64,000 nucleotides of DNA from Bacilli bacterium (GTDB lineage: Bacteria > Bacillota_I > Bacilli_A > RFN20 > UBA1709), in assembly GCA_045600465.1 (NCBI GenBank), contig JAZRXY010000028.1:55577-119576 (forward strand), in the 5' to 3' direction. This document shows, piece by piece, positions 6,934 to 24,832 of this stretch (the stretch's first letter is position 1; each line of letters begins with the position of its first letter). Below the pieces are notes generated by a model, which made no database searches, was not told the DNA's origin, and saw only the letters and a list, made by a program, of their open reading frames with translations. Made by a program: the position numbers and the translations under genes.

Positions 6934-7923
6934 CTAATCACCATACTTTGTTATAACTTCATTAGGTATTACTAGTCCAATTTTATTGCAAGCTTCTTGG
7001 TTGATAGCTAATGAATATTCATCTGCTGATAAGTAACCTACAGGGAATGAAGCTGTATCTTTACCATTTAAGATTTCAGCTGCCATTTTACCAGTTAGAA
7101 CACCTAAGTTATAGTAATCAATACCTAGAGCAAATGTTCCACCAGATTCGACCATTCCTGCCTCACCAGCACTTACTGGAATTTTTGATTCATAAGCGAT
7201 GTTTGTTACAGCTGGCATATTAGAAGCTAATAGGTTATCAGTTGGGATGTAAATGACATCAGCACCATCACTGATTAGTTTTCTAACTGACATTGCAATA
7301 TCAGAGACATCACTAACTGTTTGAACAAGTGTATTTAATCCTTGTTTTGCAGCTTCTTTTTCTGCTAAATCTGATTGAACCTTTGAGTTTGACTCACTAA
7401 TCGTGTATAGAATGCCAACAGTATCAGCACTTGGTAAGACTTCTTTTAGTAAATCAATTTGTAATTCTACTGGGTTCATATCACTAGTTCCTGTGATATT
7501 TCCACCAGGGTTTGCATTAGAATTAACAAGTTTAGAATCTGCAGGGTCTGTAACTGCTGTGAATAGAATCTTAGTTTTGCTATTTTGTTGTTGAGCTGCA
7601 GCTTGAAGCGCAGTAGCAGCAGGAGTAGCAATACCTAATACTAAATCATTATCTCTAACTATAGTTTTTGCTAGAGCAGATAGAGTAGCAGAATCTCCCT
7701 CAGGGTTATCGTAAGATATTGTAATATTTACGCCATCTTCAAACCCGCCTTGTTTTAATCCTTCGATGAAACCATCATTTGCACTGTTTAGTGCACTAAA
7801 TGTTGCGTACTGAATAATACCAACTTTTGCTTTCTGATTGCTAGTTTCTCCACAACCAACTAAACTAGTGGTCATTAAACAGGATAATAAACTAACAATT
7901 CCTAGTTTTGCGAATAATTTCAT
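6934..7923 (-). CDS. ABC transporter substrate-binding lipoprotein (ABC_sub_bind / COG2984 family)
   Basis: Signal plus lipobox LVGCGE, then KVGIIQYATFSALNSANDGFIEGLK, typical of this family. Confidence 0.8.
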   Translation of the reverse strand: MKLFAKLGIVSLLSCLMTTSLVGCGETSNQKAKVGIIQYATFSALNSANDGFIEGLKQGGFEDGVNITISYDNPEGDSATLSALAKTIVRDNDLVLGIATPAATALQAAAQQQNSKTKILFTAVTDPADSKLVNSNANPGGNITGTSDMNPVELQIDLLKEVLPSADTVGILYTISESNSKVQSDLAEKEAAKQGLNTLVQTVSDVSDIAMSVRKLISDGADVIYIPTDNLLASNMPAVTNIAYESKIPVSAGEAGMVESGGTFALGIDYYNLGVLTGKMAAEILNGKDTASFPVGYLSADEYSLAINQEACNKIGLVIPNEVITKYGD

Positions 7924-7955
7924 AATAATCCCCCTTATTTGTAAATCATTCTTTC

Positions 7956-7989
7956 AATAAAAAGTGTTATCACAATTAAGTAATAACAC
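7956..7989 (-). terminator. leader terminator (attenuator) upstream of the COG2984 importer operon
   Basis: On the minus-strand RNA, GUGUUAUUAC-uuaauu-GUGAUAACAC forms a 10-bp stem with one G.U pair and is followed by UUUUUAUU. Its 5' arm can instead pair with an upstream segment. Confidence 0.5.
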
Positions 7990-8068
7990 AGGGAAGTAAA
8001 TATATTTGTTTCTACGTTATTACTTTAATTAGCTTTATCGTAATAACATTTTAGGTTTTACTTTTACA

Positions 8069-8164
8069 TTAGCAAACACCCAAGTCTGCAATCACGATAC
8101 ATCTTGGAAAATAAAAGTAAAAGTAATAAAAGAAAGAATTGCATAATTTCTTAATAAGTTTCAT
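8069..8164 (-). CDS. candidate 31-aa leader peptide MKLIKKLCNSFFYYFYFYFPRCIVIADLGVC
   Basis: AGGAGG SD (8178-8173) lies 8 nt before the ATG at 8164. Nine consecutive Phe/Tyr codons (8134-8108). Too short to appear in the ORF track. Confidence 0.45.
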   Translation of the reverse strand: MKLIKKLCNSFFYYFYFYFPRCIVIADLGVC

Positions 8165-8236
8165 ATGTAGTTCCTCCTTTTTACGTGATACCTCTATTAT
8201 ATGTAATATATATATCAAAATAAATAGTTTTTACAA

Positions 8237-8250
8237 TGTAAGCACTTTCA
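8237..8250. promoter_or_regulatory. cre-like box TGTAAGCACTTTCA
   Basis: 13 of 14 positions match the CcpA cre consensus TGWAANCGNTNWCA (central CG is CA). It lies upstream of the leader ORF. Confidence 0.4.
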
Positions 8251-8253
8251 ACA

Positions 8254-9057
8254 TTATAGTTTTGTAAATTTCATGCTTAGAAACATTGGGATCTCACTTT
8301 TAGCCAGTTCAATTGCTTCACTTTTGATGCCTTTTTGTTCTTTTTTGTTACTGGCAAGTTCTTGTATTTCTTCTAAATATAAGCCATATTTACTTGCGCT
8401 ATTGATGTAGGCATTAATAGGGCGGTGATAGTGATAAGTGATTTCTGAATTAGCTTTATTGCTAGGCTTAGATAATATTTCAATAGTTTCACTATTTAAG
8501 TATTTCCACATAATGCGTTCTTGGCGATGTTTTTCATCATTAAACTGCCAATTAGAGTATTGAGGAATTCTAAAGCAAGGATGCATCATTACGATGATTA
8601 AAGATCCACCTTTTTTAAGTAGTTTAGAGACGGCTTTAAACAAAGGTGATAAAGGATTAATGTTTTGAATTGCTAAAACGACAGTAGCGTAATCATAATA
8701 TTCACTTTTTAAATCAAGCTTTAGATTACCATTTTGAGACAAAAGTTTAGTAACATCAGCAGTAATGTAACTTGGTTCATTATCATTATTAAGTTTCCTT
8801 TTTTTTGCCATTCTTACTAGTGCTGGTGCAATGTCAATTCCTGTTACTTTTGCACCTAGATTAGATAGTTGACGACATAAAACTCCTTGACCACAAGCTA
8901 GATCAATCACAGTTTTACCAGCAATCTTTTTATCTCCTAATGATTTTATTAAACTAGGGAATATTACATTTTGATGATATTCACTTCCGGTTTCTCCCAC
9001 TAAAGAATCATACCATTTAGCAACCTTATTCCATGCAAGGCTTTCATTTTTGTCCAT
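8254..9057 (-). CDS. class I SAM-dependent methyltransferase
   Basis: Motif I VIDLACGQG; 267 aa. Confidence 0.8.
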   Translation of the reverse strand: MDKNESLAWNKVAKWYDSLVGETGSEYHQNVIFPSLIKSLGDKKIAGKTVIDLACGQGVLCRQLSNLGAKVTGIDIAPALVRMAKKRKLNNDNEPSYITADVTKLLSQNGNLKLDLKSEYYDYATVVLAIQNINPLSPLFKAVSKLLKKGGSLIIVMMHPCFRIPQYSNWQFNDEKHRQERIMWKYLNSETIEILSKPSNKANSEITYHYHRPINAYINSASKYGLYLEEIQELASNKKEQKGIKSEAIELAKSEIPMFLSMKFTKL

Positions 9058-9154
9058 TTTACCACCTCAAACGCTTAATTATTATACAATAATTAAATCA
9101 AAACTACCATATTATTCATAGATGTGTTAAAATATTTCAGCGGGGCGTGATACT

Positions 9155-10843
9155 ATGAAATTAAAAAATAATTTTTTTAACACATTCAGAGAAGATGTAA
9201 AAGATGAAGATTCAGTTAGTGGTAATTTACTTACTAGAGCTGGCATGATCAAAAAGACTAGTGCTGGTGTTTACATGTACTTACCGCTAGGATATCGCGT
9301 CTATAATAACATTTGTAATATTGTAAGAGATGAAATGGTTAAGGCAGGGAGCCAAGAGGTTTTAATGCCAGCTTTAATTAGTGAAGATGTTTACGTTTCA
9401 AGTGGTAGAAGAGAAGGTTTTGGCCACGATATGTTTACATTTCACGATAGATTTGATAAGCCATATGCATTAGGGCCAACTCATGAAGAGTTGTTTGTTA
9501 ATGCTGCAAAAATGTATGTTAAATCATATAAAGATTTACCGTTTAACATTTTCCAAATTCAAATAAAATTCAGAGATGAACCTCGACCAAGATATGGTCT
9601 TATTAGAGTAAGAGAGTTTGCAATGAAAGATGCTTATTCATTTGATGCAACTATGGAAGGCTTAGATGAGTCTTACAAGAAGATGTTTGATGCTTATAAG
9701 AACACCTTTGATAGAGTAGGACTAAACTATGCAATTGTTAGAGCAGATACTGGAGTTATGGGTGGACTACTAAGTGAAGAGTTCCAAGCAATTTCTCCAA
9801 TTGGAGAAGATACAATTGTTCAATGTGATAGTTGTGATTTATCAGCCAACTTAGAAATTGCTGAAGTAGTTGAAATAGTAGATCAAAAAGAAGCACATAA
9901 AGAAAAAGAACTAGTTAATACACCAAATGCTGGAAGTATTGAAGAAGTTAGTGCTTTCTTAAATGAAAAAGCTGATAAGTTTGTTAAGACGATGATTTAT
10001 ATGATTGATAACAAACCATACGCTATTTGTTTACCTGGAAATAGAGAAGTCAATGAAAACAAAGTTAAAAAACTTGTTGGTGGCTTAGAAATTGAATTAG
10101 CTGATTTTGATACAGTAAGCAAAGTAACAAATGCTAAAGTTGGTTTTGCGGGTCCTATTGGATTAAGTATTCCAGTAATTATGGATAGAAATATTAAACA
10201 CATGGCTAACTTTATTGTCGGCGCTAACAAATCTGATTATCACTATAAAAATGTTAATATCGAAGATTTCAAAGCTGATTATGTTGGCGATATCACTTGC
10301 ATTAAAGAGGGAGATATCTGCCCAAAATGTGGTGGAAAAATTGTCTTTAAAAAAGGTATCGAAGTTGGTAATACTTTCAAACTAGGAACTAAATATTCAA
10401 AAGCACTAGGACTTCAATATCTAAATAACGAAGGTAAATTACAAGATGTTATCATGGGAAGTTATGGCATTGGTATTGGTAGAACAATGGCTGCAGCTGT
10501 TGAACAATTCCATGATGAAAAAGGTATTATTTGGCCAATGTCAATTGCACCTTTCAAAGTAGCAATTGTTATTATCAACATTAAAGATGAAGAACAAGTT
10601 AAGATTGCTAATAAGATTTATGATGATTTAATGGCTAAAGGAATTGAACCACTTCTAGATGATAGAGATGAAAGAGCAGGAGTTAAGTTCAATGATATGG
10701 ACTTAGTAGGAATTCCTCTAAGAATTACTGTAGGTAAGGGCATTAAAGAAGGCGTAGTTGAATTCAAACATCGTAGCGATAGTGAAGCAACTAATATCAA
10801 GATTGAAGAAATTGTAAATCTTGTTGAACAAGAAACAAAATAA
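9155..10843 (+). CDS. proS: proline--tRNA ligase (bacterial type with an inserted editing domain)
   Basis: 562 aa with class II motifs and the conserved N-terminus (RAGMIKKTSAGVYMYLPLG, FRDEPRPRYGLIRVREF). Confidence 0.95.
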   Translation: MKLKNNFFNTFREDVKDEDSVSGNLLTRAGMIKKTSAGVYMYLPLGYRVYNNICNIVRDEMVKAGSQEVLMPALISEDVYVSSGRREGFGHDMFTFHDRFDKPYALGPTHEELFVNAAKMYVKSYKDLPFNIFQIQIKFRDEPRPRYGLIRVREFAMKDAYSFDATMEGLDESYKKMFDAYKNTFDRVGLNYAIVRADTGVMGGLLSEEFQAISPIGEDTIVQCDSCDLSANLEIAEVVEIVDQKEAHKEKELVNTPNAGSIEEVSAFLNEKADKFVKTMIYMIDNKPYAICLPGNREVNENKVKKLVGGLEIELADFDTVSKVTNAKVGFAGPIGLSIPVIMDRNIKHMANFIVGANKSDYHYKNVNIEDFKADYVGDITCIKEGDICPKCGGKIVFKKGIEVGNTFKLGTKYSKALGLQYLNNEGKLQDVIMGSYGIGIGRTMAAAVEQFHDEKGIIWPMSIAPFKVAIVIINIKDEEQVKIANKIYDDLMAKGIEPLLDDRDERAGVKFNDMDLVGIPLRITVGKGIKEGVVEFKHRSDSEATNIKIEEIVNLVEQETK

Positions 10844-10853
10844 AGGAGTTAAC

Positions 10854-12494
10854 ATGGCAACAAAGGGAAAAAATAAGAATATAAAAAGATATTTTTTATA
10901 TGTAACAGGTTTTTTCTGTGGCATGTCGATTATGGCTATTGAACTTGGAGCATCAAGACTAATGGCTCCATATTATTCTTCCTCTCAAATTATCTACACT
11001 ATTATTATCGGAACTGTCATGATTGCAATGGCATTTGGTAGTATATTAGGTGGGAAGATGGCTGATAAATATGAAGCACCAGATAAGCTATTTATGTGGA
11101 TTTTTATTGCGGCTTGCTGGACGTGTTTAATTCCACTTGTTGGTAAATATATTATTGCAGGAGTTGCTTTAGTTTTAGCGGCAAGTCCACTTGCGAATAA
11201 CTTTCTTGTTATTGCAGCATTTTTATCTTGCATAATTGTCTTTGTCCCACCGCTATTAGTTATGGGTATGGTAACACCTAATCTTATAAAATATGCAGTT
11301 GGAAATTTAGAAAATAATGGTAGAGTTGTTGGAACAATTGAAGCATTAAATACAATAGGTTCTATTATTGGAACTTTTATTCCTACTTTTGTTACAATTC
11401 CTTTTATTGGAACTAGTTGGACCTTTCTAATTTATAGCTTTATTCTTTTTGGAATTTGTTTATTTTACTTTTTCAAAAAACATCAAAAAAGATTATTATA
11501 TTCATTTATTTGTTTAATTGTTATAGCAGCAGGCATTTTGGGTTCAAGTTTTGGCAATATTGCTTTTTTTGCTTCAAATACAGTTTATGAAGGTGAATCT
11601 ATTTATAATTACTTAAGAGTTGAAAAAAATAGTGAACAAACAATTTTATCAACCAATGTTTTATTTGGTGTTCAATCACTAAAAAATAATAAAGATGGTT
11701 TAACAGGAATGTATTATGATTATGCTTTAGCTGCTAATTTAATGGCAGATAAGGGCAATGATGGAATACTTGATATTTTAATACTTGGTTTAGGGACTGG
11801 AACTTATGCTTATCAAAGCAATTTATATGTTGGGGACTGTGTTTTTGATGGTGTAGAGATTGATCAAAAAATAGTCGATTTAGCATATGAATATTTTGAC
11901 TTACCTAGTAACGTTAATGTTTTTGTGCAAGATGGTCGAATTTATTTAGATAATTGTGACAAAAAATATGATGTAATTCTTGTTGATGCTTATCAAGATA
12001 TTACAATTCCATTCCATATGTCTAGTATTGAATTTTTTAGTAAAGTAAAAGATCATTTAAACCCAAAAGGAGTTATGGTTGTTAATATGAATATGTATAC
12101 TTCCAACGAGGGTGGAATTAATGATTATTTATCAGGTACAATTTCCCATGTTTTTAATAATATATATGGCGCGAATTGTTATAGCAATAGCAATTATGAA
12201 TTATTTGCATGTAATGATTTTGATCTAAAAGATAAATTATCAAAAACAATAGAAAACAAAGAAATAACAAACCATCAATTACTTACTATGATGAAAGAGG
12301 TTGAAAGAAAGTTAGAAAAGGTTACTAACAAAGAACAATATGTACTAACAGATAATATTGCTCCTGTTGAAATCTTAGGTATGAATGTTTTAGATGATAT
12401 GATTTTTGAAGAAATAAATTATTATAAAAGTAAAATTAAAGGTCTTTCATTAAAAGAAATTGTTGAGATGTTAAGTAGAGGGGAATTATTCTAA
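10854..12494 (+). CDS. fused polytopic membrane domain plus spermidine-synthase-like methyltransferase-fold protein
   Basis: The ATG at 10854 has a GGAG SD; the track TTG at 10821 is less likely. Eight or so TM segments, then ILILGLGTGT...VILVDAYQD. Confidence 0.7.
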   Translation: MATKGKNKNIKRYFLYVTGFFCGMSIMAIELGASRLMAPYYSSSQIIYTIIIGTVMIAMAFGSILGGKMADKYEAPDKLFMWIFIAACWTCLIPLVGKYIIAGVALVLAASPLANNFLVIAAFLSCIIVFVPPLLVMGMVTPNLIKYAVGNLENNGRVVGTIEALNTIGSIIGTFIPTFVTIPFIGTSWTFLIYSFILFGICLFYFFKKHQKRLLYSFICLIVIAAGILGSSFGNIAFFASNTVYEGESIYNYLRVEKNSEQTILSTNVLFGVQSLKNNKDGLTGMYYDYALAANLMADKGNDGILDILILGLGTGTYAYQSNLYVGDCVFDGVEIDQKIVDLAYEYFDLPSNVNVFVQDGRIYLDNCDKKYDVILVDAYQDITIPFHMSSIEFFSKVKDHLNPKGVMVVNMNMYTSNEGGINDYLSGTISHVFNNIYGANCYSNSNYELFACNDFDLKDKLSKTIENKEITNHQLLTMMKEVERKLEKVTNKEQYVLTDNIAPVEILGMNVLDDMIFEEINYYKSKIKGLSLKEIVEMLSRGELF

Positions 12495-12510
12495 CTTATT
12501 TGCAACAAAC

Positions 12511-12535
12511 AAAAAAGAGGCATTGCCTCTTTTTA
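12511..12535. terminator. bidirectional intrinsic terminator
   Basis: AAAAAAGAGGC-att-GCCTCTTTTT. Confidence 0.75.
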
Positions 12536-12540
12536 ACATT

Positions 12541-12654
12541 TTATCCTGGTAAATTAACACTTGGTAATAAATCACCAAAGAATAGCATAAATATACATGC
12601 AGCGAATACAAGTATGAATAGTATCAAACCTTTAATGTTTGTTTTTTTGTTCAT
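12541..12654 (-). CDS. small hypothetical membrane peptide (37 aa) MNKKTNIKGLILFILVFAACIFMLFFGDLLPSVNLPG
   Basis: GAAGAGG SD about 10 nt before the ATG at 12654. One TM segment. It ends at the bidirectional terminator. Confidence 0.35.
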   Translation of the reverse strand: MNKKTNIKGLILFILVFAACIFMLFFGDLLPSVNLPG

Positions 12655-12722
12655 AATAATCAACCTCTTCGTCTATGCTTTTATTATAAAGGATAGGATA
12701 AAGACATAGCAAGTGAAAAATC

Positions 12723-12740
12723 TTTATCACTAGTGATAAA
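12723..12740. promoter_or_regulatory. perfect 18-bp palindrome TTTATCACTAGTGATAAA over the -35/spacer of the next promoter
   Basis: Self-complementary. It is followed by an extended -10 TGcTATCAT (12743-12751). Confidence 0.4.
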
Positions 12741-12777
12741 TGTGCTATCATAATAATTGAAGAAAGAGGAAGCAGCT

Positions 12778-13257
12778 ATGTACGAAGAATATATTGAACA
12801 AAATAAGAAAGAAATAAGTGCAATCATCCAAGAGATGAGTGATGATTTTAAGGAACATAAACAAGACTACTTCTTTAGAGAAAGAATCTCACAAGAAGGA
12901 GATGTTGCTGTTGACAAGGCCAAAAAAGGTAGTGCTCCAAGATATGGAGTTAAAGTAACTCAAGATTGTGAGAACTTTATTTATGGTTACATTAGAGTAT
13001 TAAAAGGGATTATTTATAAAAAGAATCCTGATGATGATGACCGTGATTCAGAAGCAATTGCAAAAGATATTATGTGCACTTATATCTTAAAAGAAGTATA
13101 TAAAAATATTGATATGCCATACAATTCTAGATATCAAGAACTTATCAATCGTCGTGAAAGATATACAAAGATAAAAGTTATTGGTATTCTTGGCTTTATC
13201 ATTTGTATCATCATTGTTATTATTTGCGCAATAGTAACTGGTGGAAATGCAGCGTAA
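12778..13257 (+). CDS. hypothetical tail-anchored membrane protein
   Basis: The ATG at 12778 has a GAGGAAG SD. Single C-terminal TM (IKVIGILGFIICIIIVIICAIV). Confidence 0.6.
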   Translation: MYEEYIEQNKKEISAIIQEMSDDFKEHKQDYFFRERISQEGDVAVDKAKKGSAPRYGVKVTQDCENFIYGYIRVLKGIIYKKNPDDDDRDSEAIAKDIMCTYILKEVYKNIDMPYNSRYQELINRRERYTKIKVIGILGFIICIIIVIICAIVTGGNAA

Positions 13258-13318
13258 CAGTTAACTTTTGTAATAAAAAGTAGTAAAATATTTTTGAAAC
13301 CATGTGGAGGTAATTAAA

Positions 13319-13894
13319 ATGGCAAAAAAATTTATTGTAGAAACATCAGCAAGACATGCTCACATTAGTGAAGCAGATCTAGAAACACTTTTTGGAAAAG
13401 GATACAAACTAACTCCAAAGAAAGACTTATCACAACCTGGTCAATTCGCTTGTGAAGAAAAAATTACAGTTAAAGGACCTAAGGGTGAAATTAAAATGTC
13501 AATCTTAGGACCAACAAGAAAAGAAACACAAGTTGAAATCTCATTATCAGATGCTCGTTCACTAGGATTTGATGCTCCAATCAGAGAATCAGGAGACCTA
13601 GCAAATTCAGCACCATGTGAAATCGTTGGGCCAAAAGGTAGCGCAAAATTAGATAAAGGCGTTATCGTTGCAAAACGTCATATTCACGCAACACCTAAGG
13701 ATGCAGAAGAATTAGGAGTTAAAGATAAGGATATCGTTTGGGTCAAAGTTGAAAGCAATGGCAGAACATTAATCTTTGGTGATGTTGTTGCAAGAGTTAA
13801 TCCAAGCTATGCATTAGCAATGCACGTTGATACAGACGAAGCAAATGCTGGAGCATTCAAGGGCGAAGTTTACGGCGAAATCGTTAAACTATAA
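13319..13894 (+). CDS. pduL: phosphate propanoyl/acetyl-transferase, PduL family
   Basis: ETSARHAHIS and AKRHIHATP repeats are typical of PduL. The ATG at 13319 follows a GGAGG SD. Confidence 0.85.
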   Translation: MAKKFIVETSARHAHISEADLETLFGKGYKLTPKKDLSQPGQFACEEKITVKGPKGEIKMSILGPTRKETQVEISLSDARSLGFDAPIRESGDLANSAPCEIVGPKGSAKLDKGVIVAKRHIHATPKDAEELGVKDKDIVWVKVESNGRTLIFGDVVARVNPSYALAMHVDTDEANAGAFKGEVYGEIVKL

Positions 13895-13907
13895 TATTAA
13901 AGAATTA

Positions 13908-13932
13908 GGGTGGGTAACCACCCTTTTATTTT
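13908..13932 (+). terminator. intrinsic terminator
   Basis: GGGTGG-gtaa-CCACCC followed by TTTTATTTT. Confidence 0.8.
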
Positions 13933-13977
13933 GCTTGCAATTAAGTTAAAATGTAACAGTAAGAGGGCGATGGATTT

Positions 13978-14700
13978 ATGGATAATGAGTTTATTGAAAA
14001 TATAATAGTGGGAGCAAATGATGTAGATGAATTTAAACAAATGAAATATTCATCAATTTTTACTGCTATTGAACATGCTTCAAGTGACCACGTAGATACT
14101 ATTGGACAAGGTGGCAAAGATTTACTTGCAAGAGGATTAGTTTGGGTAGTAGCAAGAGCTAATGTAGTAATGAAAAGATTACCTTTAGTAAATGAAAAAC
14201 TCACAATCAAAACTTGGCCAGGAAACAATATGAAATTCATCTATCCTAGATATACATTAATCTTAGATGAAAAAGGTAATGAAATTGGTAAGGCTAATGT
14301 ATTATGGTCTATCATTGATTTAAAAAATAGAAGAATTGTTATGAATCCTAGTAAATTAGTTAATTACTTCAAAGTAGAAAATAAAGTAGAAAAGTTAATA
14401 GAAGATCCAATTGGTTTAAAGTTTAATGAATTAAAAAATCATAAACTTATCAAAGTTTGTGATAGTGATATTGATTTAAATGGACATGTTAATAATGCAA
14501 AATATCTTGATTGGATTTATAATGTTATTGAAAAGGATTATTTGAAAAATCACTTTACCAAAAATGTTATAATTAATTATCAACATGAAATTGGTTTAGA
14601 AGATAACGTTGATTTAAGTTATGAAATTAATGATGGTAATTTATGTGTTAGTGGGATGGTAAATAACATTATTTGTTTCAATGCATTAATAAAGTTTTAG
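13978..14700 (+). CDS. acyl-ACP thioesterase (FatA/B-like)
   Basis: 240 aa, double hot-dog pattern (LVWVVARANVVMKRLPLVNEKLTIKTWP, DIDLNGHVNNAKYLDW). Confidence 0.8.
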   Translation: MDNEFIENIIVGANDVDEFKQMKYSSIFTAIEHASSDHVDTIGQGGKDLLARGLVWVVARANVVMKRLPLVNEKLTIKTWPGNNMKFIYPRYTLILDEKGNEIGKANVLWSIIDLKNRRIVMNPSKLVNYFKVENKVEKLIEDPIGLKFNELKNHKLIKVCDSDIDLNGHVNNAKYLDWIYNVIEKDYLKNHFTKNVIINYQHEIGLEDNVDLSYEINDGNLCVSGMVNNIICFNALIKF

Positions 14701-18038: not shown

Positions 18039-18890
18039 ATGATTTTATTAGATTGGTTAAGCAATCCAGGTGTTACTACACCATATGACTTGGAAGCAGG
18101 ATTACAAACAACTTCGACATTTAATTGGTACATTATTCCGATATTTGTTATTTTGTTTTATTGCGTTTGGAAAAACATTAGAGCTAAAAGATACTCAGTA
18201 GTTTTAGGAGGAGTAGCATTCTGGCTTTGGGATGTTTTTAATGAAACATGGAACTCAATGGTTTATGCCACAACTGGTCAACCAGTATGGGGTACAACCT
18301 TAGCGGGTAATTCATGTTTTCAAATCTTAATTGGTTATAACATTGAGATTTCTATTATGTTTATGTTTTTAGGAATGGCAACATGTTATATGCTATCAAC
18401 AACATTAGGTTATGAAGGGGAAAAATTTATGGATGGCAATAAAAATTGTCTAGAAGATTCTAATAACTTATATTACAAAGCTACAACCAAAAATAAAGAT
18501 TTAACACCAGCCCAAAGAAAGACAAAAGCAAAAGCAATTAGAGGAAGAATTCTTACAATTGTTTTAGGATCAATCTCCGCTGTTATTATTGAAATCATTT
18601 TAAATAAATGTGGAGTCCTTACTTGGGAGAAACCTTGGTGGCAACCAAACTTCCCATTCATTCTATTCCTTATCGGTTATGTTCCATTCTTTGTAGCAGC
18701 AGTCTTAATTCATGATGCTCCTAGAAAATGGCAAATAATAGGACTAGCAATTGAACTAGGTATTGTTATTGCACTTCTAGTAGTTGCAGGTTGCATGGGA
18801 ATGCTAGGACACCAAATCGAAGTCTTACCTAATGGAGATTGGGTATGGGTCGGTAAGTGGTTAAGAGAAGGAATTACATTAATTAGATAA
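18039..18890 (+). CDS. polytopic membrane protein of unknown function (paralog of 24161-24832)
   Basis: 283 aa. Shares FNW...W..IR.K.Y, LLIG, KWW and YVPFF blocks with the second copy. Confidence 0.7.
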   Translation: MILLDWLSNPGVTTPYDLEAGLQTTSTFNWYIIPIFVILFYCVWKNIRAKRYSVVLGGVAFWLWDVFNETWNSMVYATTGQPVWGTTLAGNSCFQILIGYNIEISIMFMFLGMATCYMLSTTLGYEGEKFMDGNKNCLEDSNNLYYKATTKNKDLTPAQRKTKAKAIRGRILTIVLGSISAVIIEIILNKCGVLTWEKPWWQPNFPFILFLIGYVPFFVAAVLIHDAPRKWQIIGLAIELGIVIALLVVAGCMGMLGHQIEVLPNGDWVWVGKWLREGITLIR

Positions 18891-18914: not shown

Positions 18915-20639
18915 TTAATTCAGTAATTCTTTAAAGAATGTCTCATCGTAGTAAGTAGAGTAACTACCAGCATTACTATTATAAAACTCATAGACTTTAT
19001 AATTAGGTGAATAATTTGTTAACTTATAAGCTGATTCATCATAGTTTTTAATAAGTTGTCCAGAACTTTCTTGTTTTTCTAGTGAACTATTAAGATTTCC
19101 ATCATCTTTATAATCAAACGCATCATATAGTTGCTTGATTAAAGTCGCACGATTTTCTGGATTAAACCATTCAGTTTCTTGAGTGCCATTAATTAAAACA
19201 ATTTTACCAACATTGTTAGCAAACTTATCATAATCGATATTGTTTGTTAAATGAATTTCTGTCCTAGTGTCATTACCATAAGCATAACCATCTATAATAA
19301 TAAGTTCTTCGATTTTTTGGTCTTTTAATAGCGAATTAATTCCAAAGTTGGAGTTGAATGCCTGTGCTACTAATACAATTTTATTGTTTTGCAATTGAAA
19401 TTTATCAACAAATTTATCTAAGAATGTATCAATTGATTTATTTAATTTTTCTTCATCCTGCCAAGCGTTTGTTAATGGGAAAATATTAATTACATTACTA
19501 TCTTTATATGTAGATTTATACCAATTAATTATGTTTTCTTTTCCCCAATCAAAATAAGATAAAACAATAGAGGTGTTTTCATTAATTGTATCAGGTAGGA
19601 AATATGCAAAGTCCATTCTTTCATAATAGACTTCGTTAATACCTTTATTAGTAGTTAATTCATCGTTAGTTCTAGGAGCAGTTAAATCTTTTTTCCAATC
19701 ATTCTTTTCTCCAAAGAATGATTTGAAGATAATTTTTAAAACTGCATTAGTTATGGTATGCGGATAATTATCAATATCATAATAAACAATAGTACCATCA
19801 TTATAACTTGTTACATTATAGGTTGCATTTTGTTGGTAAAGAGAATTAGATCCAAAAAATTCTTCTTTTGTTAGTGAATCATTGAGTTGCTTGTCATCGA
19901 TATAATCGAATAGTGTAGTCATTTGTTTTACAACATATTTAGCATTTGCTGGCACAACTCTTTCATCCATTTTACCATGGAATATTAGAGCTTTTTGTTT
20001 ATCCAATGCGACACTTTTATAGAAGTTTTTTGGATAAGTAAAATCACTATTTCCACTTATAACATCATTCGCTTCGTTAATAGTATTAGCAACACCATCA
20101 GCTATACCTGCGACACTAGCAATTCCTTTATACATTGGGTTAGAAAAGAATAAACCGATAGCTTCAGCAGCACCTGCTGAAAGTCCTGAAATATAGACTT
20201 TATCTTTGTTTATATTGCACGCTTCGATGACTTGTCTAGTTATTTCATTAATGGCAGCTGAATCTAAAGCAAAGCCTTTTCTATTATTTTCAAAAAACCA
20301 ATTCCAACATAAGTCGGTGTTACAAGTATAATTTTGTGAAGGTAAAACAACAACAGCGTTATACTCTTCAGCACATTTTTTAAAATCATAATTTTTGTAG
20401 TAGGCATAACCATCATTGCCACAACCATGAAGAAATAATAGAAGCCCTGTTTCAGAGTTATAACAAGAAGGAACATAGTATAAGTAATTAAAACTATTTA
20501 AACTACCTTTGTGTTCTCCAATTTCGTTACTAAATTGATTTTCAATTGTGGGGTTTGTTTCATGAGGGTTTTTGTTTGAAGTGGTTCCACAACTAACTAG
20601 TAGAAAACATCCTAATAATAAAGCTAAAAATTTTTGCAT
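18915..20639 (-). CDS. secreted lipoprotein: PHB-depolymerase-family esterase domain plus a C-terminal domain of unknown function
   Basis: The ATG at 20639 follows a GGGGTG SD. Lipobox LLVSCG. LLFLHGCGN and the nucleophile elbow GLSAGA. Confidence 0.7.
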   Translation of the reverse strand: MQKFLALLLGCFLLVSCGTTSNKNPHETNPTIENQFSNEIGEHKGSLNSFNYLYYVPSCYNSETGLLLFLHGCGNDGYAYYKNYDFKKCAEEYNAVVVLPSQNYTCNTDLCWNWFFENNRKGFALDSAAINEITRQVIEACNINKDKVYISGLSAGAAEAIGLFFSNPMYKGIASVAGIADGVANTINEANDVISGNSDFTYPKNFYKSVALDKQKALIFHGKMDERVVPANAKYVVKQMTTLFDYIDDKQLNDSLTKEEFFGSNSLYQQNATYNVTSYNDGTIVYYDIDNYPHTITNAVLKIIFKSFFGEKNDWKKDLTAPRTNDELTTNKGINEVYYERMDFAYFLPDTINENTSIVLSYFDWGKENIINWYKSTYKDSNVINIFPLTNAWQDEEKLNKSIDTFLDKFVDKFQLQNNKIVLVAQAFNSNFGINSLLKDQKIEELIIIDGYAYGNDTRTEIHLTNNIDYDKFANNVGKIVLINGTQETEWFNPENRATLIKQLYDAFDYKDDGNLNSSLEKQESSGQLIKNYDESAYKLTNYSPNYKVYEFYNSNAGSYSTYYDETFFKELLN

Positions 20640-20755
20640 TAAAACCACCCCTTTTAACACTACAAATTATAACATATACTTAATGCTTGGCAAAATAAGG
20701 TAACATTATTTTTCAAAAGGTGTATAATGATTTTGGACAAATGAGGTGAGTGAGA

Positions 20756-21538
20756 ATGAAAGTAATTATTATTACTGGAGCAAGTAGTGGTATTGGTCTT
20801 ACAACAGCCAAGTATTTTGTAACTAAGGGTTATAAAGTATATGGGATTGCTAAAGATAAATATCAAGGAAATGAATTTACTTGCTATCAAGCTGATGTTT
20901 GTGACTATGCTAGCATTGATAAAATCTTTGCAGAAATCTATAAAAAAGAAGGACATATTGATGCACTATTTAATAATGCAGGATTTGGAATTGCAGGAGC
21001 AATGGAAGATGCTAGTAAAGAAAAGATACAAAATATTGTTAATGTAAATTTAGTAGCAGTAACTACATTATCTTCAAAGATTATTCCTTACCTTAGAAAA
21101 AGTGGTGGGGGAAGAATTGTAAACACTTCAAGTGTTGGAGGATTAATGCCTCTACCATATCAAGCGATGTATAGTGCAACTAAAGCTGGAGTTGAAGTTT
21201 ATTCTAGAGCACTAGATAACGAAGTAAGACCATTTAACATTAGAGTAATTGCAGTCTTACCTGGCGATACAAAAACAGGCTTTACAGCAGCTAGAGAATT
21301 TGAAGATAAAAATAGTGGTAATGGTGAAGCTGCTGCTAGATCAATTGCTAAGATGGCAAAAGATGAACAAAATGGAGCAGATCCAATCACAGTTTCCAAA
21401 GCAGTCTATCAAGTTATTGAAGCCAAAAATCCTCCATTAAGAAAGATAGTAGGATTAGTTTCTAATCTAGAATGCTTCGTTATTAGATTACTACCATTAA
21501 GATTTATTAACTTTGTGATATCAAAAATGTATTGTTAA
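20756..21538 (+). CDS. classical short-chain dehydrogenase/reductase (SDR)
   Basis: TGASSGIG cofactor motif and catalytic YSATK. Confidence 0.85.
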   Translation: MKVIIITGASSGIGLTTAKYFVTKGYKVYGIAKDKYQGNEFTCYQADVCDYASIDKIFAEIYKKEGHIDALFNNAGFGIAGAMEDASKEKIQNIVNVNLVAVTTLSSKIIPYLRKSGGGRIVNTSSVGGLMPLPYQAMYSATKAGVEVYSRALDNEVRPFNIRVIAVLPGDTKTGFTAAREFEDKNSGNGEAAARSIAKMAKDEQNGADPITVSKAVYQVIEAKNPPLRKIVGLVSNLECFVIRLLPLRFINFVISKMYC

Positions 21539-21551
21539 GGGGATAGTAAAA

Positions 21552-22736
21552 ATGAAAGATTTATTTGAAAAAACTAAACAACATCAAATATATGATACTT
21601 TAAAGGAAACAGGGAATTATCCTTATTTCCATGCATTAACTAGTGGTCAAGATACTGTTGTTGAAATGGAAGGACATAGAACAATAATGCTAGGTTCTAA
21701 TAACTATCTAGGACTTACATCAAATCCTGATGTTATTAAAGCTGGTGTTGAGGCATTAGAAAAATATGGTTCAGGTTGTTCTGGATCAAGATTTTTAAAT
21801 GGCACACTTGATATCCATTTACAACTAGAAAAAGAACTAGCAGAATTTTTACATAAAGATGCTGTCATAACATTTGGAACAGGATTCCAATCAAACCTAG
21901 GAATTATTTCTTCTATCGTTGGATTTAACGATGTTATCTTATGTGATAAAGAAAACCACGCTTCAATTTATGATGGTTGTAGATTAAGTTATGGAAAACT
22001 AGTTAGATTTGAACATAACGATATGAATGACCTAAAAGAAAAATTGAAGGAAGTACCAGAAAATGTCAGTTGTTTAATTATCACTGATGGTGTTTTCTCA
22101 ATGAGTGGAGATATTGCAAATCTACCACGTATTGTCGAACTTGCTAGAAAATATGGCGCAAGAGTCATGGTTGATGATGCTCATGGATTTGGCGTTTTAG
22201 GTAAAAATGGTAGAGGAACAGCAGAATACTTTGGACTAGAAGATCAAGTCGATATCATTATGGGAACATTCTCAAAGTCATTAGCTTCTATTGGTGGATA
22301 TATGGCAGCAGACCAAAGAACAATTGATTTTGTTAAACACAGTTCACGTCCTTATATCTTTAGTGCTAGTATGACTCCTGCTAGTGCAGCTTGTGCCTTA
22401 GCAGCTTTAAGAATAATTAAGAGTGAACCTAATCGCCCTGCCAGACTTCTTGAACTTACAAAACATATGCAAGATAAATTAAAAGAATATAACATTAATA
22501 TCATTGAAGCTAAAACTCCAATAATTCCAATTTATACTTATGATGATGAAAAAGCATTTAAAGCGTGTGCATTACTTCTTGAAAGAGGAGTATATGTTAA
22601 TCCAGTAGTAAGTCCTGCCACTCCAAAAGGCAAAGCACTACTTAGAACTTCTTATACAGCAACACATACATTTGAAGAATTAGATGAGGCTGCTAAAAAG
22701 ATTAAAGAAGTTCTAGATATTCTAGATGTAAAATAA
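21552..22736 (+). CDS. PLP-dependent alpha-oxoamine synthase, serine-palmitoyltransferase-like
   Basis: GSNNYLGL, GSGCSGSRFLNGT, DDAHGFG, PLP-lysine GTFSKS, RPYIFSAS. It starts 13 nt after the SDR gene. Confidence 0.8.
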   Translation: MKDLFEKTKQHQIYDTLKETGNYPYFHALTSGQDTVVEMEGHRTIMLGSNNYLGLTSNPDVIKAGVEALEKYGSGCSGSRFLNGTLDIHLQLEKELAEFLHKDAVITFGTGFQSNLGIISSIVGFNDVILCDKENHASIYDGCRLSYGKLVRFEHNDMNDLKEKLKEVPENVSCLIITDGVFSMSGDIANLPRIVELARKYGARVMVDDAHGFGVLGKNGRGTAEYFGLEDQVDIIMGTFSKSLASIGGYMAADQRTIDFVKHSSRPYIFSASMTPASAACALAALRIIKSEPNRPARLLELTKHMQDKLKEYNINIIEAKTPIIPIYTYDDEKAFKACALLLERGVYVNPVVSPATPKGKALLRTSYTATHTFEELDEAAKKIKEVLDILDVK

Positions 22737-22758
22737 AAGAGGCGCTGCCTCTTTTTTC
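22735..22758 (+). terminator. intrinsic terminator
   Basis: AGAGGC-gct-GCCTCT followed by TTTTT. Confidence 0.8.
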
Positions 22759-22927
22759 GTATACTAAAACTAGGAGTGAATTTTTTAGTTTTTTTATTTC
22801 TAATATTGATGTATAATAATAATGATGGAAAGTTATTTATATCTTAGGGCAGTTACTGACCCTGCAAAAACCATGTAAAGCTTTGACTTTTTATTCTTGG
22901 TCTTTCCATCACTATCGAAATAAGTTG

Positions 22928-22956
22928 GCTGAGAGAATTTTTGACTCTCAGCTTTT
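22928..22956 (+). terminator. left-end hairpin/terminator of the IS
   Basis: GCTGAGAG-9 nt-CTCTCAGC followed by TTTT. IS200 is known to carry such a read-through blocker. Confidence 0.55.
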
Positions 22957-23034
22957 CTTATGTAACTCGAAGAGTAACATAAAACCGCCTTCTTTGAGGG
23001 CGAGAAATGAATAAGCAAGAGCGATAGGCAAAAT

Positions 23035-23093
23035 AAAACCTTCCGGTGTATAATGGTAATGCTCAATTGCCAAGGCACAGAAAGGAAGGTTTT
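23035..23093 (+). promoter_or_regulatory. stem sequestering the tnpA Shine-Dalgarno
   Basis: AAAACCTTCC (23035-23044) is perfectly complementary to GGAAGGTTTT (23084-23093), which sits immediately before the ATG at 23094. Confidence 0.55.
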
Positions 23094-23564
23094 ATGCCAC
23101 ATTTTAAAAATGATGACACAAGTAGTTTATCACACACGAGGTGGGATTGTCAGTATCATATTGTGTTTACGCCGAAATATCGAAGGAAAGCAATATATGC
23201 GAAACTACGACAGGATATAGGGAAATATGTGCGGAGGTTGTGTGAATACAAAGGGGTAGAAATAGTAGAAGCACATGCTATGGTAGACCATATACATATG
23301 CTTGTAAAAATACCACCGAAGATAAGTGTATCATCATTCATGGGATATTTGAAGGGAAAAAGCAGTTTGATGATTTTTGATGAACACGCCAACTTAAAAT
23401 ATAATTATGGGAGTAGGCACTTCTGGTCAGAAGGGGACTACGTTTCGACCGTAGGTCTAAACAAGAAAACAATACAGAATTATATTCGTAACCAAGAAAT
23501 AGAAGATCGGATATCGGACAAAAGAAGTTTAAAGGAATATAACGACCCGTTTACGGGTAAGTAA
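23094..23564 (+). CDS. tnpA: IS200/IS605 family transposase TnpA (Y1 HUH transposase)
   Basis: YHIVFTPKYRRK, HUH motif DHIHMLV, catalytic Tyr region FWSEGDYVSTVG. 156 aa counted from the ATG at 23094. Confidence 0.9.
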   Translation: MPHFKNDDTSSLSHTRWDCQYHIVFTPKYRRKAIYAKLRQDIGKYVRRLCEYKGVEIVEAHAMVDHIHMLVKIPPKISVSSFMGYLKGKSSLMIFDEHANLKYNYGSRHFWSEGDYVSTVGLNKKTIQNYIRNQEIEDRISDKRSLKEYNDPFTGK

Positions 23565-24004
23565 GAGTGTCCAAGGCAATTGGGCAAATAAAAACACCCC
23601 GAAATCGGGGTGGCCAGTAATTAGCCTTGAAGGCGTTAGAGAAAAACCACGCCTTGTCAGACGTGGATTTTTATTTTTATGTAGGCGTACATCTAAAGCA
23701 AGTGATTAAATATTTCTTGACTAAATCACTTTTGTTGGATGCTTTTTGAAAATAGTTATCAACTTTCATTGGATGCGCTTACCAACGATTACCAACTTTT
23801 ATTTGAGAGAACCTATTATACTACATAATTTTAAAAAATGCCTCTTTTGAGGATTTTTCGTCGTGGTTTTGATTATATACGTTAATTTATTAGAAAATTA
23901 TTAATTTAATACTTGATTTTCCTTATCTAATTTTTTGCTCAAAAAACTTAAAAAGTATTGAAAAAGGGGATAAAATAAGTTAAGATAATAAAGCAATCAT
24001 AAAT

Positions 24005-24081
24005 GGATCCTTAGCTCAGCTTGGTAGAGCAACTGACTCTTAATCAGTGGGTCTGGGGTTCGAATCCCCAAGGATCCACCA
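24005..24081 (+). tRNA. tRNA-Lys (anticodon CTT) with encoded CCA
   Basis: Hand-folded cloverleaf: acceptor GGATCCT/AGGATCC, anticodon loop CT-CTT-AA, T-loop TTCGAAT. Confidence 0.9.
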
Positions 24082-24160: not shown

Positions 24161-24832
24161 ATGTTTTTTAAATTTTGGGGTGATGGTTCTAATTTTGCTA
24201 AAGGCTTAATTCAACAAATCGCAGTACGTAGTACAGAAAATTTTAATTGGACGTTTATTTTTATTCTAGCTGTTGTTTTCTATGTTTATTGGAGTGAAAT
24301 AAGAAAGAAAAACTATACAGCAGTCTATGCAGGACTTGCACTATATGGAGTTCACTGGTTATATGAAATTGTTAATGCTGTTATTGCACATTTCTCTGGT
24401 TATCCATTATGGGCAGTCAGCAATGAATCAACATCATTTATTTTGTTAATTGGTGTTTGTTGGGAATTATCAATGATGTTTGCTTTAGCTGGTATTATTT
24501 CATTTAAGATGTTACCAGATGATCGTAGCAAGCGTTATTTTGCTAAAGGTAAATTCAAAGGTATTAGCTGCAAATTAGTTGGTGCTATTGAAATGGCAGT
24601 CTTATTTGCATTATTTGAATCTTTCTTAGCAGGTACTACAAATAATAGCTTTATTTGGGTTTACAAATGGTGGGGAGTACTTCCTGTATTCATCACAACC
24701 TATGTGCCATTCTTCTTGGCAAGCAACTTTGTTCCTGATATGAAACCAAAAACAAGAAAATGGTTCTTGATAGGGCTATGGGGATTAGTAGCACTTTTGT
24801 TAATTGTATTAATTCCACTAGGAATAATTTAG
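24161..24832 (+). CDS. polytopic membrane protein of unknown function (paralog of 18039-18890)
   Basis: 223 aa, collinear with the other copy but lacking its Lys-rich central loop. Confidence 0.7.
   Translation: MFFKFWGDGSNFAKGLIQQIAVRSTENFNWTFIFILAVVFYVYWSEIRKKNYTAVYAGLALYGVHWLYEIVNAVIAHFSGYPLWAVSNESTSFILLIGVCWELSMMFALAGIISFKMLPDDRSKRYFAKGKFKGISCKLVGAIEMAVLFALFESFLAGTTNNSFIWVYKWWGVLPVFITTYVPFFLASNFVPDMKPKTRKWFLIGLWGLVALLLIVLIPLGII

Follow-up and report, generated by a model that had tools for sequence, protein, structure and literature searches.

A putative operon for sphingoid-base synthesis in an uncultured member of the Bacilli

Whether a small-genome member of the Bacilli could build the backbone of a sphingolipid is the question raised by two adjacent genes, at 20756-21538 and 21552-22736, in a stretch of 64,000 nucleotides from a Bacilli bacterium (assembly GCA_045600465.1, contig JAZRXY010000028.1, positions 55,577 to 119,576), which as a whole is referred to here as the window. 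A preliminary description, made from the letters of the DNA, had read the first gene as a short-chain dehydrogenase/reductase (SDR) of the class that reduces 3-ketosphinganine and the second as a pyridoxal phosphate (PLP)-dependent alpha-oxoamine synthase closer to serine palmitoyltransferase (SPT) than to KBL or BioF, and had remarked that Bacillota were not known as sphingolipid producers. That remark fits the literature we found, in which a search returned no paper linking SPT or sphingolipid synthesis to Clostridia, Bacilli or Spirochaetes. Sphingolipids of gut bacteria reach the tissues of the host and influence immunity and lipid metabolism, and the literature credits nearly all of them to Bacteroidota and a few Proteobacteria. 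Here, we provide evidence from a phylogenetic tree, profile searches, active-site residues and the linkage of the two genes that supports the earlier sphingoid-base reading and makes it likely that the operon accounts for steps one and two of sphingoid-base synthesis, in the order known from Bacteroides and eukaryotes and on a scavenged acyl chain, in a module that would have been acquired horizontally. The enzymes themselves add to known families, in a host group where they were not expected.

Both open reading frames lie where they had been placed, SDR first and synthase second on the + strand, and the 13-nt gap reported between them is exact (SDR stop TAA at 21536-21538, synthase ATG at 21552). 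The downstream gene (21552-22736, + strand) encodes a PLP-dependent alpha-oxoamine synthase of 394 amino acids, predicted to be a serine palmitoyltransferase; it is the sole copy, no second alpha-oxoamine synthase having been found in the assembly. The motifs quoted for it are all present in its translation (KYGSGCSGSRFLNGT, GTFSKSLAS and SSRPYIFSAS), where GSGCSGSRFLNGT, GTFSKS and RPYIFSAS are seen. Its best profile is that of the Bacteroidota SPT, NF047600 SerpalmtaseCFB, at 547.2 bits, compared to 414 bits with the betaproteobacterial SPT model (cut-off 500), 409 bits with Kbl (cut-off 460) and 385 bits with BioF (cut-off 426), and this best score exceeds that of any non-SPT model by at least 133 bits. 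The best solved structure is likewise an SPT, that of Sphingobacterium multivorum (PDB 3A2B/8GUH; 442 bits, gapless over 385 residues), ahead of the PDB Sphingomonas SPT (295 bits), KBLs (about 250-280 bits) and cysteate fatty acyltransferases (CFATs; 233-239 bits). In a multiple alignment, identity falls from 51.7% with S. multivorum SPT and 41% with S. paucimobilis SPT to 36% with E. coli Kbl, 34% with CFAT and 29% with BioF. Profile and structure searches alike thus uphold the resemblance to SPT, rather than to KBL or BioF, that had been read from motifs.

Phylogenetic analysis placed the synthase more precisely. We computed a careful maximum-likelihood tree of 80 rows (LG+C20, rooted on BioF) whose references were drawn from E. 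coli Kbl and BioF and the PDB sequences, transcribed from printed alignments, of both characterised bacterial SPTs and two CFATs, together with paralogues of the SPT-like, KBL, BioF and CFAT kinds, taken from 51 genomes that share the phylum of a Bacteroidota-labelled metagenome-assembled genome (MAG) and each labelled by its own NCBIfam or PDB matches, and from the 69 related loci described below. KBL grouped with TIGR01825, followed by CFAT and SPT as sisters, with CFAT (100/100), KBL and BioF each forming a separate clade. The SPT clade (100/97) contained the synthase of the window along with the characterised enzymes of S. paucimobilis and S. multivorum, and within it an Arenicellales enzyme, S. 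paucimobilis SPT and a Bacteroidota group branched off in that order; S. multivorum SPT is then sister (96/82) to 42 Firmicute and Spirochaete rows, which form a clade of their own (100/99) and include the window synthase. The preliminary description had called for a phylogeny, and a position among KBL or BioF enzymes, which it had named as contrary evidence, did not occur.

The active site agrees with this placement. Measured against the residue roles assigned in S. multivorum SPT (PMC10196870), 17 of 19 active-site residues are identical in the window synthase. The Schiff-base lysine K242, within GTFSKS, is accompanied by H136, which stacks on PLP, D208 at PLP N1 and H211 at PLP O3', aligning with Lys244, His138, Asp210 and His213 in S. 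multivorum and with Lys265, His159, Asp231 and His234 in S. paucimobilis, and R365 is also kept. For the residues that hold the carboxylate and hydroxyl of L-serine in S. multivorum SPT, namely Asn52, Gly80, Ser81, Ser243 and Met271 (PMC10196870), the equivalents are N50, G78, S79, S241 and I269, the last being the S. paucimobilis state. In place of Gly78-Ser79, KBL has Ser-Val and CFAT has Gly-Ala; Asn83 is replaced by Cys in KBL; and Ser241 corresponds to Gly in both KBL and BioF and to Ala in CFAT. The two residues that differ from S. multivorum, Ser77 and Ile269, are states found in other members of the SPT clade.

The upstream gene (20756-21538, + strand) encodes a classical SDR of 260 amino acids, predicted to be a KdsR-like 3-keto long-chain-base (3-ketosphinganine) reductase. 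It matches Pfam adh_short with 162 bits, carries TGASSGIG, NNAG, the NTSS serine and YSATK in its translation, in line with the TGxxxGxG motif and Ser-Tyr-Lys residues of the class, and has NF049977 KdsR as its best NCBIfam model (239.6 bits); a tblastn search with E. coli FabG found it as one of just two classical SDRs in the genome. When the genes lying up to 8 kb from the synthase were compared across 69 related loci, drawn from species-representative genomes, the SDR alone recurred. Of the 39 Firmicute loci whose flanks extend 1.2 kb or more on each side, 28 have an orthologue directly adjoining SPT, which is found in three layouts: upstream in the same direction, like the pair in the window, downstream in the same direction, or divergent. 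None of nine Spirochaete loci has such a neighbour, one of these genomes holding an unlinked copy. In a quick SDR tree the SPT-adjacent SDRs cluster together (SH-aLRT 85), in a group joined by two second copies as well as an unlinked one from an SPT-positive genome, and they form a clade (96) with the best KdsR-model matches of three sulfonolipid-type Bacteroidota genomes. The window SDR groups with those of loci L001, L003, L004 and L006, that of genome G002 groups with that of G007, and a 'Bacilli' subgroup is recovered, much like in the SPT tree; the exception is L030, which is found with G002/G007 in the SPT tree and in the 'Bacilli' subgroup of the SDR tree. The recurrent adjacency and the broad agreement of the two trees among close relatives imply that the genes behave as a co-inherited functional module, and the earlier assignment of the SDR to the 3-ketosphinganine-reducing kind is supported, KdsR being its best-matching model and the SDR a conserved neighbour of the SPT clade.

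A separate observation concerns the Bacteroidota that we sampled. Several of the genomes G064, G073, G074, G077, G089 and G093 had an SPT-like gene and no KdsR-model match at E <= 1e-40, and three genomes carrying CFAT had strong matches of 263-273 bits. The KdsR-like SDR family may therefore track sulfonolipid synthesis as much as sphingolipid synthesis in that phylum.

How widely the synthase is shared was judged from its relatives. At 53-73% identity, these come from MAGs labelled Clostridia, Christensenella, Oscillospiraceae, Lachnospiraceae, Bacilli and Spirochaetales/Sphaerochaetaceae, with Caldicoprobacter oshimai DSM 21659 as the one cultured carrier found, and the module, as placed by the tree, belongs to a large clade common to uncultured Bacilli, Clostridia and Spirochaetes. 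The SPT of C. oshimai is 63% identical to that of the window, and its genome gave no KdsR-model match at E <= 1e-40. When the host's GTDB phylum was sampled evenly, the SPT gene turned up in 38 of 400 genomes, belonging to 20 of 172 genera. Within the host's family it was carried by 4 of 12 genomes, host included, compared to 0 of 29 from other families of the order in the sample of relatives; the wider phylum sample added one other family of the order (f4). The three other carriers in the family fall into two different SPT subclades, either reverse the order of the two genes or show no link between them, and share no flanking synteny with the window. This patchy distribution and non-synteny indicate, on sequence comparison, repeated horizontal transfer of the module, and indicate that the host's family holds three separately acquired versions of it. 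Acquisition by the present host is not recent, since the composition of the operon (GC content 0.33; GC content at third codon positions, GC3, 0.14) is host-like, with a GC3 of 0.18-0.24 in the host genes measured in the window.

Two members of the wider set stand out. A Spirochaetales-labelled MAG of about 0.9 Mb (locus L015, genome G046) has an SPT that nests in a Firmicute subclade apart from other Spirochaetes, and the best-scoring unlinked KdsR-like SDR (270 bits); it could be a mislabelled bin or a separate transfer. A 'Bacteroidales bacterium' MAG encodes, on a 264-kb contig, a protein (P0019) that is 74% identical to the window SPT, compared to 43-50% for typical Bacteroidota SPT-like proteins, reflecting either mis-binning or transfer of a Firmicute-type gene into Bacteroidales.

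The host genome bears on where the acyl chain would come from. The assembly comprises 927 kb in 35 contigs and is an estimated 88% complete, representing a genome of roughly 1 Mb. Its assignment to the Firmicutes, as first described, is in keeping with UvrA, whose nearest named homologues are those of 'Bacilli bacterium' MAGs (72-75%) and Anaerorhabdus (Erysipelotrichaceae; 68%). We rejected a binning artefact, as the operon lies on a 119.7-kb contig with this Bacilli-type UvrA and has host-like composition, and we also rejected a spore-forming host, as relatives of SpoIIAA and SpoIIAB were not found and the sole sigma-F match was weak (30% identity). A FabD search, which covered the host genome only, gave no significant match, and FabF (KAS I-II) gave merely marginal, short matches in open reading frames of about 400 amino acids. 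KAS I/II (FabF/FabB) was likewise not found in eight other small genomes, six of the same family (G002, G005, G007-G010) together with G045 and G046; one of the six is a single contig, and the two from outside the family carry closely related SPTs. The organism is thus predicted to be a non-sporulating fatty-acid auxotroph whose acyl chain, with FabF and FabD missing, must be scavenged, and the lineage of the nine small genomes appears to be auxotrophic for fatty acids as a whole.

Means of activating such a chain are present. The host carries FakA and PlsX, one acyl carrier protein (ACP; Pfam search) as do all nine small genomes, an acyl-ACP thioesterase within the window (13978-14700), and one long-chain acyl-CoA ligase-like enzyme, the sole AMP-binding enzyme of the genome (376 bits, contig C27:17167-19772). 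We considered this ligase as a dedicated partner of the module and rejected it, as the SPT-positive genomes G002, G007 and G010 lack it and the SPT-negative G005 and G009 have it. Acyl-ACP is favoured as the donor in G002, G007 and G010, because these SPT-positive relatives have no AMP-binding ligase. Beside the ligase on C27 stands a gene for a 294-amino-acid protein with a 2-oxoacid-dehydrogenase-type acyltransferase domain in which the usual catalytic His is apparently replaced (DERLADG), and the presence of this protein does not follow that of SPT among relatives.

We propose that scavenged fatty acids would be activated either by the single acyl-CoA ligase or by FakA to acyl-phosphate and onward by PlsX to acyl-ACP, and that the soluble PLP enzyme encoded at 21552-22736 would condense the long-chain acyl thioester with L-serine to 3-ketodihydrosphingosine, releasing CO2. 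The co-transcribed SDR (20756-21538) would then reduce the 3-keto group with NAD(P)H to a sphinganine-like long-chain base, so that the 3-keto base would be reduced free, ahead of N-acylation, as in the Bacteroides/eukaryote type of pathway. We infer the serine substrate, the chain length, the acyl carrier, the cofactor and everything beyond the free base; the most likely product is a sphinganine-like base, and the prediction stops there because nothing resembling the next enzyme was found. The preliminary description had listed no ceramide synthase candidate in the window, and our genome-wide tblastn (E <= 5) found no relative of a stand-in query, a 376-amino-acid protein from locus L059 that is a positional candidate only. 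A relative of the CerR-like reductase was also not found in the genome by tblastn at E <= 5 with the Spt-flanking gene of L059, again a stand-in query. That locus, on an Arenicellales chromosome (6949-14260), encodes in order a CerR-like extended SDR, Spt, the 376-amino-acid protein (no Pfam or NCBIfam family; the positional bCerS candidate), an HpnN/MMPL-type RND transporter and a CDP-alcohol phosphatidyltransferase-like protein, and resembles a Caulobacter-type ceramide cluster extended by genes for head groups and export.

The two genes look like a single self-contained transcription unit, as suggested by one promoter-like site, two Shine-Dalgarno sites and one terminator. The promoter-like site (GTAACA-17 nt-TATAAT, 20700-20728, + strand; 10 of 12 positions, a consensus match only) lies in a 95-nt divergent spacer that is common to the esterase gene upstream. 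The Shine-Dalgarno sequence of the SDR (GAGGTG, 20743-20748, + strand) is 7 nt before ATG 20756, which we take as the start rather than GTG 20750 because the latter is just 1 nt away from it, and that of the synthase (GGGGA, 21539-21543, + strand) sits inside the 13-nt gap, 8 nt before ATG 21552. Directly 3' of the synthase stop, an intrinsic terminator-like hairpin (AAGAGGC-GCT-GCCTCTT plus a T-run, 22737-22757, + strand) was read directly from the sequence, and a scan gave the same palindrome on the opposite strand.

Beyond this unit no gene family is a conserved neighbour. The divergent esterase gene (18915-20660, - strand) encodes a polyhydroxybutyrate (PHB)-depolymerase-type lipoprotein of 581 amino acids with the PHB-depolymerase/esterase domain in its N-terminal half, and never adjoins SPT in related loci. 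Downstream, as context outside the pathway, lies an IS200/IS605-type insertion sequence (22760-23700, + strand) with a Y1 transposase reading frame (23095-23564; Pfam Y1_Tnp, 126 bits), whose GC3 of 0.42 compares with 0.14 in the operon and 0.14-0.24 in neighbours. Fragments of it at 99-100% identity occur on contig C5 and right at the beginning of contig C7. The element looks like a recent multicopy arrival, probably later than the operon, and the assembly may break there. Further 3' of it, ARAGORN found a tRNA-Lys(CTT) gene (24005-24081, + strand); tRNA genes are frequent landmarks of inserted DNA.

Two distant paralogues (26% identity) of an uncharacterised membrane-protein family with the precomputed label PF27271 'AF_1327' flank the operon region, at 18039-18890 and 24161-24832. 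As pathway partners they were rejected, being present in 0 of the 69 related loci, and they did not serve to define an empty site for insertion of the operon, relatives carrying the two genes on different contigs or not at all. Homologues of the 24161-24832 protein at 81-89% identity occur in MAGs labelled Bacilli, Lachnospiraceae (including isolate YSD2013), Treponemataceae and Clostridia, an unusually high conservation across phyla, and had variable neighbours in the two places examined. In the window this type of gene stands directly upstream of a sodium:alanine symporter gene, and in two same-family loci, L192 (G006:C13, 1955-4970) and L193 (G010:C31), a 57%-identical AF_1327-type protein is encoded directly upstream of a canonical tdh-kbl operon. 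A role in small amino-acid transport is conceivable.

Several points weigh against the sphinganine interpretation. Both enzymes score below the curated equivalog cut-offs of their best models, the synthase with 547 bits against 640 for NF047600 and the SDR with 240 bits against 400 for KdsR, and a generic oxidoreductase model reaches 211 bits for the SDR, merely 29 below KdsR. The 640-bit cut-off delimits a narrow Bacteroides-type group, as judged from the 461-518 bits scored on NF047600 by SPT-like proteins of the sampled Bacteroidota, and the 400-bit cut-off was passed by none of 25 genomes scored. Since several dissimilar SDRs carry 3-keto long-chain-base reductase activity (PMC11211663), sequence alone says little about the function of this one. 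The genome search for a relative of ceramide synthase was negative, and the product may for that reason never become a sphingolipid; absences are provisional in an assembly of this completeness; and lipid chemistry for any carrier was not found in the literature. Lastly, bacterial SPTs also take L-Ala and Gly, at lower efficiency (PMC10196870), and the operon might perform the same chemistry on alanine, glycine or another small amino acid, giving a 1-deoxy- or nor-sphingoid amino-alcohol. The symporter gene, 2.2 kb downstream of the operon, and Ser77 in place of S. multivorum Ala79, beside the substrate side chain, would suit such a substrate. We nevertheless consider it unlikely, because Asn50, Gly78 and Ser241, which hold the network around the serine hydroxyl, do not vary among the 42 clade members aligned, Ser or Thr at position 77 is the state of the Bacteroidota group as well, and the symporter is not a conserved neighbour. 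An aminolipid, which the preliminary description had named beside a sphingoid base, may also be the outcome.

The sister relationships in both trees, of the CFAT and SPT clades and of the SPT-linked SDRs and the top KdsR-model matches of three CFAT-carrying Bacteroidota genomes, raise the thought of a sulfonolipid (capnine) pathway, in which the synthase would act as a cysteate fatty acyltransferase and the SDR would reduce 3-ketocapnine. This is highly improbable given that the synthase falls in the SPT clade and not in the well-separated CFAT clade, that it scores 239 and 233 bits with the CFAT structures compared to 442 with SPT, and that it has SPT states where the CFAT pocket has Gly-Ala, Gly185, Ala243 and Pro79; moreover, CFATs are described in PMC13692747 as strongly preferring cysteate and not being convertible to serine use. 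A housekeeping KBL for threonine breakdown, or BioF for biotin, deserves hardly any credence. All alpha-oxoamine synthase models match the protein strongly, Kbl and BioF included, but these two scores stay under their cut-offs, the synthase lies outside both clades, and same-family relatives with a true tdh-kbl operon use a different, 40% identical paralogue for it. Neither bio nor tdh genes flank the pair, as already noted in the preliminary description, and tblastn with E. coli BioA, BioB and Tdh found none in the 927-kb assembly. It is also very hard to believe that the operon is an intact, non-functional and silent passenger of horizontally acquired DNA. The IS200-type element and the tRNA gene directly downstream, along with the patchy distribution and the non-syntenic flanks within the family, speak for mobility, but the two reading frames are uninterrupted and come with good ribosome-binding sites as well as a promoter-like site and a terminator; the GC3 of the operon, at or below that of host genes, places its acquisition in the less recent past; all catalytic residues of the synthase are kept; and a genome of 1 Mb would be unlikely to retain 2 kb of DNA that serves no purpose.

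Taken with synthesis of a sphinganine-like base as the favoured function, these results suggest that production of a sphinganine-like lipid backbone is probable in this member of the Bacilli and in many further uncultured Firmicutes. With an spt-kdsR module in about a tenth of the sampled genomes of the phylum and in many Clostridia and Spirochaetes MAGs, abundant but uncultured Gram-positive lineages would be added to the producers, and the module would offer a minimal two-gene route to sphinganine. Ceramide-type lipids were reportedly described in the 1970s from Acholeplasma axanthum, a relative of the Bacilli lineage, which if right would be a biochemical precedent; our search of the literature for sphingolipids of Acholeplasma or Mollicutes found nothing usable. 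A Black Sea survey predicted Spt-like genes in MAGs of 38 phyla and raised the number of potential producer phyla from 9 to 40, Firmicutes being unnamed in its text. As a tentative extension, possible rather than probable in our view, we suggest a portable spt and kdsR cassette among uncultured gut and rumen monoderms (small-genome Bacilli and Christensenellales- and Oscillospiraceae-type Clostridia) and Spirochaetes, which in fatty-acid auxotrophs would make free sphingoid bases from serine and scavenged host or dietary fatty acids, or would feed sphingolipid synthesis through a ceramide synthase unrelated to bCerS. If true, Firmicutes would be the source of a share of the host-active bacterial sphingolipids for which Bacteroidota now receive the credit. 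The module also raises the question of what use a sphingoid base has in a wall-bounded monoderm without its own fatty-acid synthesis.

Compared with known systems, the synthase is closest to S. multivorum SPT (3A2B, 8GUH) and the CFB SPT family (NF047600; B. thetaiotaomicron SPT), with which it shares a soluble form of about 395 amino acids and GTFSKS. Unlike these, it belongs to a separate, well-supported clade with enzymes of Clostridia and Spirochaetes MAGs, and its host is a monoderm member of the Bacilli with no outer membrane and, as predicted, no fatty-acid synthesis of its own. The closest characterised counterpart of the SDR is BT_0972 (KdsR) of Bacteroides thetaiotaomicron, a 3-ketosphinganine reductase and classical SDR that acts on the free 3-keto base first (PMC9278070). 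The window SDR is likewise classical, with TGxxxGxG and Ser-Tyr-Lys, and would act on a free 3-keto base; it differs in that its gene shares one operon with SPT, whereas in sphingolipid-producing Bacteroidota the genes for SPT, ceramide synthase and ceramide reductase are reportedly unclustered (PMC11334938). The Caulobacter route, in the account of Stankeviciute et al. (2022) as relayed by PMC11087976, runs from Spt to bCerS and then to CerR, a periplasmic NDUFA9-like extended SDR. Its first enzyme is homologous to that of the window, but acylation precedes reduction and the reductase is an extended SDR, where the window locus has a classical one; the locus as predicted matches the Bacteroides/eukaryote-like route, which would suit a monoderm without a periplasm. 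Finally, CFAT and 3-ketocapnine reductase (PDB 28EH, 7U7H; PMC11211663, PMC13692747) present the same succession of an alpha-oxoamine synthase and an SDR, with synthase clades that are sisters, and are set apart from the window system by a distinct synthase clade and distinct substrate-pocket residues.

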